From the IMG/VR virus record IMGVR_UViG_2537562152_000014: DNA of 5,803 nt; one strand, given 5' to 3'. Every line of letters starts with the position of its first letter. Positions within the stretch are counted from its first letter, which is position 1. The notes under the pieces are model-generated. The model was given only the letters and a program-made list of their open reading frames with translations, searched no databases and was not told where the DNA came from. Of the stretch, positions 605 to 5,803 are shown piece by piece. This DNA is from a virus (taxonomy: Duplodnaviria; Heunggongvirae; Uroviricota; Caudoviricetes). Position numbers and translations under genes: made by a program.

Positions 605-1243
605 ATGAACAAGCAAACAATATCTGAACGCATAACCCAACGTATGCATGCGCTAAACTTGAAAGGCAAAGACCTTGTCAATGCCACTGGCGCATCAAAA
701 GGCTCCGTAAGTCAATGGATGAACGGTGGAGGAGCGCCGTCCTCGCGTTACATAAGTTCACTGGCAAAGATATTGAAAGTAAACGAAAATTGGCTTCTTA
801 ATGGAGGAGAGTTAAATACAGGTGATTCGCTTGATCTATCTTTACCGCCGATAAAAACGGTTCCGCTACTATCACTTCAGCAGGCAGCAAGCTGGAGTGA
901 TTATATGAAAAATTCCTCAATAACCTCTTGTGTGCAGCTTGTCGGAGAAATCCCGGCCAATACCTTTGCTGTTGTTCTAGAGAGTGACAGTATGTCGACA
1001 TCTGGTGGTGGAGTTTCCATCCCAAATGGTTCAACAGTTTTTGTTGATCCCGATCGAATCGTACAACCAGGAAATATTGTCCTTGCCTTACCCAAAGGGA
1101 CCACAACGCCTGTCATTCGCAAACTGGAGATAGAAGGGCCGGATATTCTTTTAGTCCCCACGAATCCTCGCTACCCTTCAATTATGCTGGATGATCTATC
1201 TTGCATATTGGGAGTATGCTTTAAAATTCAACAAGATATTTAA
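605..1243 (+). CDS. CI-type prophage repressor: N-terminal HTH domain plus C-terminal LexA-like S24 autopeptidase domain
   Basis: 212-aa ORF. The N-terminal segment (ISERITQRMHALNLKGKDLVNATGASKGSVSQWMNGGGAPS) has an XRE-type HTH pattern. The C-terminal part carries the S24 catalytic signature: Ser in ESDSMS and a Lys about 40 residues later in VIRKLE. An in-frame TAA at 593-595 leaves 605 as the first possible start, and no SD precedes it. Confidence 0.85.
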   Translation: MNKQTISERITQRMHALNLKGKDLVNATGASKGSVSQWMNGGGAPSSRYISSLAKILKVNENWLLNGGELNTGDSLDLSLPPIKTVPLLSLQQAASWSDYMKNSSITSCVQLVGEIPANTFAVVLESDSMSTSGGGVSIPNGSTVFVDPDRIVQPGNIVLALPKGTTTPVIRKLEIEGPDILLVPTNPRYPSIMLDDLSCILGVCFKIQQDI

Positions 1244-3578: not shown

Positions 3579-4796
3579 ATGAGCACTGATAAAGAAGAAT
3601 TTGCGCTATATTGCGAAGCAAAAAATGACAAAGTCAGAAAACGTCTGGGAATTAAAGGTGGTTTTTACTGGACTACAGCAAAAAAATTATCTGTTGCCAT
3701 CTCCCGCTGCATTACCGCAATGGATGACAACGATTATGATGAAGACGACTTTAAAAAACCCGTTCGCGTCCATTTACCCGTTGTGAATGACCTTCCACCT
3801 GAAGGCGTGTTTGATACCGAATTCTGCAACCGATACGAAAAAGGCGGGGAAGATGGCATTACAATGGTATTTATCGCGCCCTCTCCCTCCGTGCAGGAGA
3901 AACCAGCCAGTACTGACAATACCAACGTCAACGGCGAAGACATGACGGAGATTGAGGAGAATATGCTCCTGCCGGTTTCTGGTCAGGAGCTGCCCATTCG
4001 CTGGCTTGCGCAACACGGCAGCGAAAAACCAGTAACGCACGTTGCACGGGAAGAACTTCAGGCATTACATATAGCACGGGCGGAAGAACTGCCGGCTGTT
4101 ACTGCCCTGGCCATTTCTCACAAAACAAAGCTGCTCGACCCGCTGGAGATTCGCGACCTTCACAAACTGGTACGCGACACTGACAAAGTTTTCCCTAATC
4201 CCGGTAATTCAGACCTGGGACTGATAACTGCTTTTTTCGAGGCATACCTGGACGCTGACTACACTGATCGGGGTCTGCTGACAAAAGAGTGGATGAAAGG
4301 AAATCGTGTTTCGCGTATCACCCGTACGGCTTCCGGTGCAAATGCCGGTGGCGGGAACAAAACCGATCGCAATCCGAATTTAGTACACACCTTCGATACG
4401 CTGGATGTGGAGATTGCAGCAGCCACACTTCCGATGGATTTTAATATTTATGAAATTCCGGGCAGCGTTTATCGTCGCGCAAAAGAAATCGTCCTGAAAA
4501 GAGAAAGTCCGTTCAAAGAATGGTCCGCAGCACTTCGCGCAACCCCGGGTATTCTGGACTATTCCCGCGCCGCTATTTTTGCACTTATCCGGAGCGCTCA
4601 CCCTGAGTTTTATCACTACCCGGGACGCCTTCAGGGGTATATCAACGCCTACTTAACGGAGACTGATCACGAGAACCCCAGCAAGGAAACTCTCACTGCT
4701 GCACGACATACACCGGAAAAAGATTCTGCAAAAACTTTTGTTCAGGAGACGCTGAAAGATACCTGGGAGTCTGCTGACGAGTGGTTTGTTCGCTAA
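3579..4796 (+). CDS. Hypothetical prophage early-left protein (405 aa), possibly an intact homologue of the gene after ydfD in Qin-type prophages
   Basis: Long ORF with GAGG (3568-3571) 7 nt upstream of the ATG. It contains an acidic patch ([10 protein letters not shown]) and a Gly-rich segment ([15 protein letters not shown]), with no TM segment. Sampled stretches are about 50 percent GC. Function not recognisable. Confidence 0.7.
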
Positions 4797-4799
4797 TTA

Positions 4800-5665
4800 A
4801 CGAGTAAAATCGACCCTGTACACGATTCTGTGTAAATGCCTTTTCTCAGAAGTGACCGTCCAGGCGGTCACCGAACTCGATAATAAAGCGGCTCATTGCC
4901 ATACGCCAGTCCCGCAGTGGCATCGTCCATTTCTGTGAAGCCGCCTGGATTGCCAGCCACACGACCTTTTTCACTGAGTCATCCGTCGGGAACACCTTGC
5001 GTTTTTTGATGGCATGCCGGATTACGCTGTTCAGCGACTCGATGGCGTTGGTTGTGTAGATGACTTTGCGGATATCTGCCGGGTAAGCGAAGAACATCGC
5101 CAGGTTGGTCCAGTTTGCCTGCCAGCTCCGGCTTATCTGCGGGTAGCGACTGTCCCAGGCGCTGGCGAACGCTTCCAGCGCCTGCTGGCCTGCTTCTTCT
5201 GTGGGGGCCTGGTAGATGGCTTTCAGGTCGCGGGTGACGGCTTTGTAGTCCTTCCAGGAAACGAACCGCAGGCTGTTGCGCACCATATGCACGATGCACA
5301 GCTGGATGCGGGCTTCCGGATACACCGTGTTGATAGCGTCCGGGAAGCCTTTCAGCCCGTCGACACAGGCTATGAGAATATCGTTCAGGCCGCGGTTTTT
5401 TAGTTCAGTCAGCACATTGAGCCAGAACTTCGCTCCCTCGTTTTCGGCCAGCCACATACCCAGTAACTCTTTCTGGCCTTCGATATTGATACCCAGTGCG
5501 AGGAATACGGATTTATTGATTACGCGACTGTCCTGCCGAACCTTCAGGACAATACAGTCAAGATAAACAATGGGATAGACCGCATCCAGTGGCCGGTTTT
5601 GCCATTCGACTACCTGCTCCATAACGGCATCGGTGACCTTCGATACCAGCGCCGGTGAGACATCA
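4800..5665 (-). mobile_element. Remnant of an IS256-family insertion sequence (3' part only); boundaries approximate
   Basis: Transposase homology spans roughly 4846-5665. The IS end should lie in the 49-bp gap between the 405-aa gene stop (4796) and the transposase stop (4846). No terminal inverted-repeat partner can be identified within the window. Confidence 0.45.
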
Positions 5666-5748
5666 GGTAAGCGTACAGCCTGAACCGTCTGGTCAGAATC
5701 TGACGAATTAGACAAAGTGGTGCCCACCAAATAAGTAGTGGGAACCAA
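4846..5748 (-). CDS. IS256/mutator-family transposase, C-terminal DDE-domain portion; probably a 5'-truncated remnant
   Basis: The product contains IS256-family hallmarks: DVSPALVSKVTDAV, the first Asp in YPIVYLDCIVLKVRQD, the second Asp in ILIACVDGLKGFPDAI, and the Glu in TTNAIESLNSVIR, followed by the KKRKVFPTDDS tail. The track start at 5748 is a TTG and the frame stays open to the window end, but residues upstream of about 5665 do not resemble the family in any minus-strand frame. Confidence 0.75.
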   Translation of the reverse strand: MVPTTYLVGTTLSNSSDSDQTVQAVRLPDVSPALVSKVTDAVMEQVVEWQNRPLDAVYPIVYLDCIVLKVRQDSRVINKSVFLALGINIEGQKELLGMWLAENEGAKFWLNVLTELKNRGLNDILIACVDGLKGFPDAINTVYPEARIQLCIVHMVRNSLRFVSWKDYKAVTRDLKAIYQAPTEEAGQQALEAFASAWDSRYPQISRSWQANWTNLAMFFAYPADIRKVIYTTNAIESLNSVIRHAIKKRKVFPTDDSVKKVVWLAIQAASQKWTMPLRDWRMAMSRFIIEFGDRLDGHF

Positions 5749-5803
5749 AGTATCAGATATGCAGAAAAATGTGACTCCCGGCAGGCGAAAAGGCTGCCCT
5801 AAT

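Follow-up and report, generated by a model that had tools for sequence, protein, structure and literature searches.

IS256-family insertion sequences depend on their single DDE transposase, and one member of the family, IS1414, carries an embedded astA/EAST1 gene. Insertions of the IS66 family are expected to be flanked by an 8-bp duplication of their target. Elements of both families lie next to each other in prophage Sp12 of Escherichia coli O157:H7 strain Sakai, where an 855-bp segment (2205799-2206653) is annotated as 'ISEic2 Family: IS256 partial' and abuts a segment annotated as 'ISEc8 Family: IS66' (2206654-2209095). A 2442-bp ISEc8 is also tabulated in Sp12 (PMC7430833 Table S7). The closest uninterrupted relative of this arrangement is the allele of E. 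coli O55:H7 CB9615 (WP_000343700.1, 402 aa), which has the same element and flanks (dinI ... nleG7) at 99.9-100% identity to the locus studied here, but which has no ISEc8, a single GACATCAG and an intact transposase gene.

We analysed a 5803-bp stretch of DNA, hereafter the window, which is E. coli O157:H7 prophage DNA with 100% identity to many O157:H7 chromosomes. Matches of typical O157:H7 genomes to the window nearly all fall in two pieces, with a total span of 6783 bp, and the sole uninterrupted 5803-bp match is in strain MA11 (NZ_CP040314.1), where positions 8001-13803 of the extracted locus (L002) equalled the window exactly in a script comparison. The sequence past position 5803 was read from this MA11 locus, identical to the window over its full length, and coordinates marked L002 refer to it. 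As comparison loci, we used those of strains KS 470-1 (L003), Sakai (L008) and O55:H7 CB9615 (L004). The Sakai Sp12 locus (ECs_2221-ECs_2225) has the same 855-bp IS256-family segment, the same junction, the same target duplication and the same ISEc8 as the window, and the nested insertion that we describe is an ordinary one, already known and annotated in the Sakai reference.

The original prediction had recognised, at the right-hand end of the window, an IS256/Mutator transposase with its C-terminal DDE region, and the profile and structural comparisons bear this out. On the minus strand, positions 4846-5666 encode residues 131-402 of the transposase and its stop codon (4846-4848), as judged by the Pfam Transposase_mut profile and by alignment to the IS256-family transposase of ISCth4 (PDB 6xg8). 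The product of this coding remnant matches Transposase_mut (PF00872) with an E value of 1.8e-86 and 290.9 bits (cut-off 21) over profile positions 121-377 of 379; the C-terminal two thirds, with the DDE region, is kept, and the match lacks the first ~120 positions of the profile. Residues D166 (5557-5559), D232 (5359-5361) and E339 (5038-5040) fall in the same alignment columns as the D, D and E of 6xg8, columns that hold the catalytic residues in the IS256 family. The frame that ends at 4846-4848 stays open as far as the window end, its next in-frame stop lying at 5803-5805, and yet the transposase similarity stops at 5666/5667, inside the interval 5665-5680 that had been predicted. The missing residues number 130 within the window. 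In RefSeq the same frame is annotated, with no pseudogene flag, as a 289-aa 'IS256 family transposase' (WP_000071962.1; window 4846-5715, minus strand) that starts at a GTG at 5715.

The ends of the IS256-family element were set from copies in four different, mutually unrelated flanking contexts, and are GACCCTGTACA... (at window 4812) and ...TGTACAGGCTC. The window holds the C-terminal (3') part, 855 bp of the 1315-bp element, at 4812-5666 on the minus strand, which has the same extent as the Sakai repeat_region 2205799-2206653; the element therefore ends at 4812 and does not extend to 4797, as had been proposed. The terminal inverted repeat distal to the transposase start, GACCCTGTACACGATTCTGTGTAAATGCCT, occupies 4812-4841, and the same end is present in four other copies (L004-L007). 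Its counterpart at the other end, GAGCCTGTACATAGATTTGTGTAATTGCCT, is located past ISEc8, and the two pair imperfectly, with ~26 of 31 columns matching. When ISEc8 was left out in silico, the element measured 1315 bp, with a 402-aa ORF and imperfect terminal repeats of ~30 bp. No 8-bp target duplication was recognisable for the IS256-family copy at this locus, where the flanks are GTAAAATC and CTCAGTAA (window 4802-4811 and L002 16567-16576). Among the other copies, one on a plasmid (L007) has an 8-bp duplication, TTGCACAT, and those in L005 and L006 have none. A shifted AGTAAA similarity in the flanks was considered as a target duplication and set aside as probably due to chance; later recombination or decay of the flanks could possibly account for the missing duplication.

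With respect to nomenclature, ISEic2 is the label of the Sakai annotators, PGAP goes no further than 'IS256 family transposase', and the papers retrieved from the literature under 'ISEic2' were all unrelated. Over a 241-bp segment, the window element is ~90% identical to ISEic2 and ~88% identical to IS1414, both as named by PGAP/RefSeq. It shares family and architecture with these two elements but is identical to neither, and, judged by its sequence, it is a relative of both. A frame resembling astA/EAST1 (...CIRKPASSCASCIWCATACGSFPGRTTKPSPAT*) overlaps the transposase frame at window ~5226-5351 on the minus strand and contains no ATG/methionine codon. A closer EAST1-like version (...RRPASSYASCIWCATACASCHGRNTKPSLAT*) is present in an 'IS1414 partial' remnant in prophage Sp9 (L001; annotated in L009). 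Compared with EAST1, the frame in the window differs at several residues.

The DNA immediately to the right of the transposase remnant belongs to a second insertion sequence. From window 5667 there begins a 13-mer, GTAAGCGTACAGCCTGAACC..., whose reverse complement is found in MA11 at L002 16096-16108, and these two positions delimit an ISEc8 of exactly 2442 bp (L002 13667-16108) with the ends GTAAGCGTACAGC and GCTGTACGCTTAC and with direct repeats of GACATCAG on either side. Its terminal inverted repeats begin with GTAAGCG and are perfect over 13 bp, with ~22 of 30 positions matching overall. The last 137 bp of the window (5667-5803, plus strand) are, by the MA11 locus and the Sakai annotation, the first 137 bp of this complete IS66-family element, starting with the left terminal repeat GTAAGCGTACAGC..., and they include the first 15 codons of tnpA, the gene of the IS66 accessory protein (5759-5803, plus strand; start codon at 5759; RefSeq CDS L002 13759-14139; NCBIfam IS66 TnpA models). 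Of the two copies of GACATCAG that make up the 8-bp target-site duplication, the left one lies at 5659-5666 and the second directly follows the right end of ISEc8 at L002 16109-16116. Past the window, the three ISEc8 ORFs of MA11 match the IS66 models for TnpA (NF047595/NF038385), TnpB (NF033819) and transposase (NF033517, 459 bits), and RefSeq names the third an 'IS66-like element ISEc8 family transposase'. The copy has 2 mismatches in 2442 bp to each of the Sakai repeat_regions labelled ISEc8 in Sp12 and Sp9, and ISEc8 itself appears intact.

This arrangement accounts for the open frame at the window end. Over 5667-5803 the minus-strand frame is read antisense to the left end of ISEc8, whose tnpA starts at 5759 on the plus strand; its openness is a matter of chance. 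And because the window stops 137 bp into ISEc8, the frame seems to continue the transposase while being unrelated to it. The first 16 codons of WP_000071962.1 are likewise antisense ISEc8 sequence, and this record is best seen as a chimeric gene call, an artefact that the nested insertion has produced in the annotation.

The N-terminal part of the transposase was found beyond ISEc8. In MA11, 130 N-terminal codons are intact at L002 16117-16504 on the minus strand, 2.44 kb away and outside the window, in a piece that RefSeq labels 'IS256 family transposase, missing C-terminus'. Removing ISEc8 and one copy of GACATCAG in silico gave a continuous ORF of 402 aa in which the split codon is codon 130. 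The reconstructed protein matches PF00872 over positions 17-377 of 379 (E 7.6e-119, 397.4 bits) and the NCBIfam IS256 model NF033543 with 424 bits (cut-off 150), and it aligns over its full length with the ISCth4 transposase (E 1.9e-111), sharing the D, D and E columns. ISCth4 is a different element from another organism, and the copy in the window differs from it in lacking the 130 N-terminal residues that align to the ISCth4 N-terminal region. By descent, the element belongs to the IS256 family, with the profile match, D/D/E residues, size and terminal repeats of that family and with a transposase gene that is now interrupted. On the MA11 locus, the sequence past 5803 consists, as read in order, of the rest of ISEc8, the far GACATCAG and then the N-terminal codons, and excision restores the ORF. 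The original prediction had been right that ~130 residues were lacking from the window (exactly 130), but these residues were neither deleted nor replaced; they are intact and displaced by 2442 bp. Similarly, its proposal of either a deletion or a second insertion at about 5665-5680 held for the insertion, which is ISEc8 from 5667, and failed for the deletion.

The uninterrupted state of the locus exists in natural isolates. The reconstructed sequence, 1345 bp including flanks, is present without interruption at 100% identity in O55:H7 strains CB9615, RM12579 and DEC5D and at 99.9% in DEC5B, and the uninterrupted allele is also found at 100% in three strains labelled O157:H7 (493/89, LSU61 and F3113). 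When CB9615 was aligned with O157:H7, the alignment blocks overlapped by exactly 8 bp at the insertion point, corresponding to one copy of GACATCAG. A 240-bp probe spanning the IS256/ISEc8 junction was matched with full cover in 224 of 5426 complete genomes. We found no second intact copy of the IS256-family element in typical O157:H7 among the best 60 empty-site matches, which came from O55:H7, some atypical O157 and non-O157 strains.

The boundaries, the target duplication, the ORF recovered by excision in silico and the O55:H7 allele without ISEc8 are direct observations, and we conclude that the truncated transposase is almost certainly an IS256-family element split by insertion of ISEc8 in the opposite orientation. 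None of the results contradicts this reading. Other explanations have to be weighed against this. The limitation of the window match to profile positions 121-377 is what a 5' deletion would leave, one that took the N-terminal third, perhaps together with neighbouring prophage genes, and made the sequence a true remnant at a prophage edge. We consider this extremely improbable, given that both MA11 and Sakai show the N-terminal codons past 5803 together with the 8-bp duplication, that the 130 codons and the second terminal repeat are intact beyond ISEc8 and that the uninterrupted O55:H7 allele contains nothing that is lacking here. It could instead be argued from the frame that is open from 5666 to the window end that the element is intact, with 5667-5803 and the sequence beyond encoding a divergent transposase N terminus; this was the outcome that the original prediction had named as contradicting it. 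However, 5667-5803 is the left end of ISEc8, matching such ends in thousands of records at 96-100% identity, with a tnpA start on the opposite strand; the frame meets an in-frame stop at 5803-5805; and the real N terminus is elsewhere. The probability left to a divergent N terminus is negligible. We put at the same level the idea that the junction arose during assembly, as a false join between two repeats. Both elements are multicopy, and such repeats are well known to cause misassembly, but the same junction with its matching duplication recurs in 224 independently finished genomes and is curated in the Sakai reference.

A different question is whether the truncated ORF might be functional, whatever its origin. 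It could encode a DDE-only protein without the N-terminal DNA-binding region, started from within the ISEc8 end (GTG at 5715), that might inhibit transposition, and the presence of a 289-aa RefSeq CDS without a pseudogene flag, together with the 100% conservation of the remnant in many O157:H7 genomes, could be taken in its favour. We regard this as very unlikely: the CDS begins with 16 codons read antisense to ISEc8, a search of both strands of 4700-5803 gave no sigma-70-like promoter, the youth of the O157:H7 clone accounts for the conservation, and, with no intact copy among the best-matching typical O157:H7 records, there would be nothing to regulate. Equally slight is the chance that the DDE-only remnant (4846-5715) is expressed as a regulator or has been co-opted or, as a secondary variant, that the astA-like frame gives a peptide from a non-ATG start.

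We return to the split by ISEc8 as the preferred reading. A 1315-bp IS256-family element encoding one 402-aa DDE transposase would have occupied a site between dinI and nleG7, in the terminal cargo region of a lambdoid prophage that is named Sp12 in Sakai. In an ancestor of typical O157:H7, a 2442-bp ISEc8 (tnpA-tnpB-tnpC) would then have inserted into codon 130 in the opposite orientation, duplicating the 8 bp GACATCAG and leaving the gene in two parts, the C-terminal one at window 4846-5666 and an N-terminal one of 130 codons 2.44 kb away. We infer this order of events, which is explained most simply if ISEc8 inserted once, on the branch that gave rise to typical O157:H7. With an element of 2.4 kb in the opposite orientation between its halves, the gene of this copy would give no full-length protein, and in its split form it presumably yields no active protein; the IS256-family copy would be a dead, interrupted element that no longer makes its own transposase.

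The position of the element within the prophages also differs from what had been supposed. The early region of the window (cro, cI, dicB, recE') belongs to Sp11, the prophage with a lambda-type replication protein P, whereas dinI, the IS256-family element and nleG7 belong, by the Sakai annotation, to the terminal cargo region of Sp12. The Sakai annotation puts the Sp11/Sp12 boundary at 2204088/2204089, with the integrase pseudogene ECs_2217 on one side and dinI (ECs_2218) on the other. O55:H7 lacks an Sp11-like prophage at this position, and its dinI-IS-nleG7-tail fibre block lies directly next to ydfJ'. The IS remnant is therefore not the right-hand boundary that it had been taken for: it lies in the neighbouring prophage, and the true boundary, between int' and dinI, was removed from the window by a deletion. 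This deletion comprises 980 bp (L003 12725-13704) that are kept in nearly all other O157:H7 genomes, and it took the integrase pseudogene, the Sp11/Sp12 boundary and the first two thirds of dinI. Its junction, 4724/4725, falls within a short imperfect repeat (CACCGGAAAAAGAT / CACCGCCGATAAAGAT) and is found in one piece only in strain MA11 among the 5426 complete genomes. Sakai, by contrast, keeps the int' remnant and, an IS629 insertion aside, a full dinI. That extra IS629 (annotated IS1203, IS3 family; L008 8372-9681) is inserted towards the 3' end of dinI, a short distance upstream of the IS256-family element, and is absent from the window and from KS 470-1.

As a result of the 980-bp deletion, the window carries a chimeric 405-aa ORF (3579-4796, plus strand), in which the N-terminal part of a RecE/ExoVIII-family protein is in frame with the last 24 residues of DinI. 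Pfam Exonuc_VIII is matched at residues 57-189, and at the DNA level the part up to 4724 matches genes annotated as 'exonuclease' in other EHEC prophages. Published work describes Int as disrupted in both Sp11 and Sp12 and Sp10 as the only one with an intact ExoVIII-type recombination system (PMC2669165). In the annotations, RecE and Int are truncated at sites upstream of dinI, and these truncations are found with an intact and with an interrupted IS region alike. The suggestion that recombination and integration functions had been lost at the transposase does not stand; the IS256-family element is not the cause of that gene loss, and the RecE and Int losses are separate lesions, the 980-bp deletion among them. 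The same early region also has a 212-aa ORF (605-1243, plus strand) that resembles a complete CI-type repressor, with a Peptidase_S24 domain and a weak HTH_3 hit of 21.5 bits, under the cut-off of 23. The RefSeq CDS covers just its last 113 aa (905-1243), and the Sp11 repressor is described in the literature as disrupted.

Some strains show further variation at the ISEc8 copies. In strain 20R2R, an ISEc8 (L001 9871-12312) has hybrid flanks: the left flank, GACATCAG, is that of the Sp12 site, and the right flank, CGAAAAAC, corresponds in reverse complement to the Sp9 duplication GTTTTTCG and has nleF/nleH1-2/nleA beyond it. Such flanks are the signature of an inversion via recombination between the Sp9 and Sp12 copies of ISEc8. 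In strain BB24-1 (NZ_CP038402.1 3061394-3061580), the match to the junction probe breaks off 67 bp into ISEc8, after which a 'head-tail connector protein' is annotated, suggesting further rearrangement or truncation at that copy. We also considered a target preference of ISEc8 for IS256-family elements and rejected it; the Sp9 copy is flanked by a duplication of its own, GTTTTTCG, and lies ~250 bp away from the 'IS1414 partial' remnant.

The finding carries little biological weight in itself, being a textbook insertion of one IS into another within the IS-rich prophage pool of E. coli O157:H7. For annotation, it means that WP_000071962.1 should be treated as a pseudogene fragment. For the organism, the ISEc8::IS256 junction is a clean presence/absence marker by which typical O157:H7 (224 complete genomes) can be told apart from O55:H7 and certain atypical O157 strains, which retain the uninterrupted allele, and the ISEc8 copy is a substrate for homologous recombination, as the Sp9/Sp12 inversion signature in 20R2R indicates.
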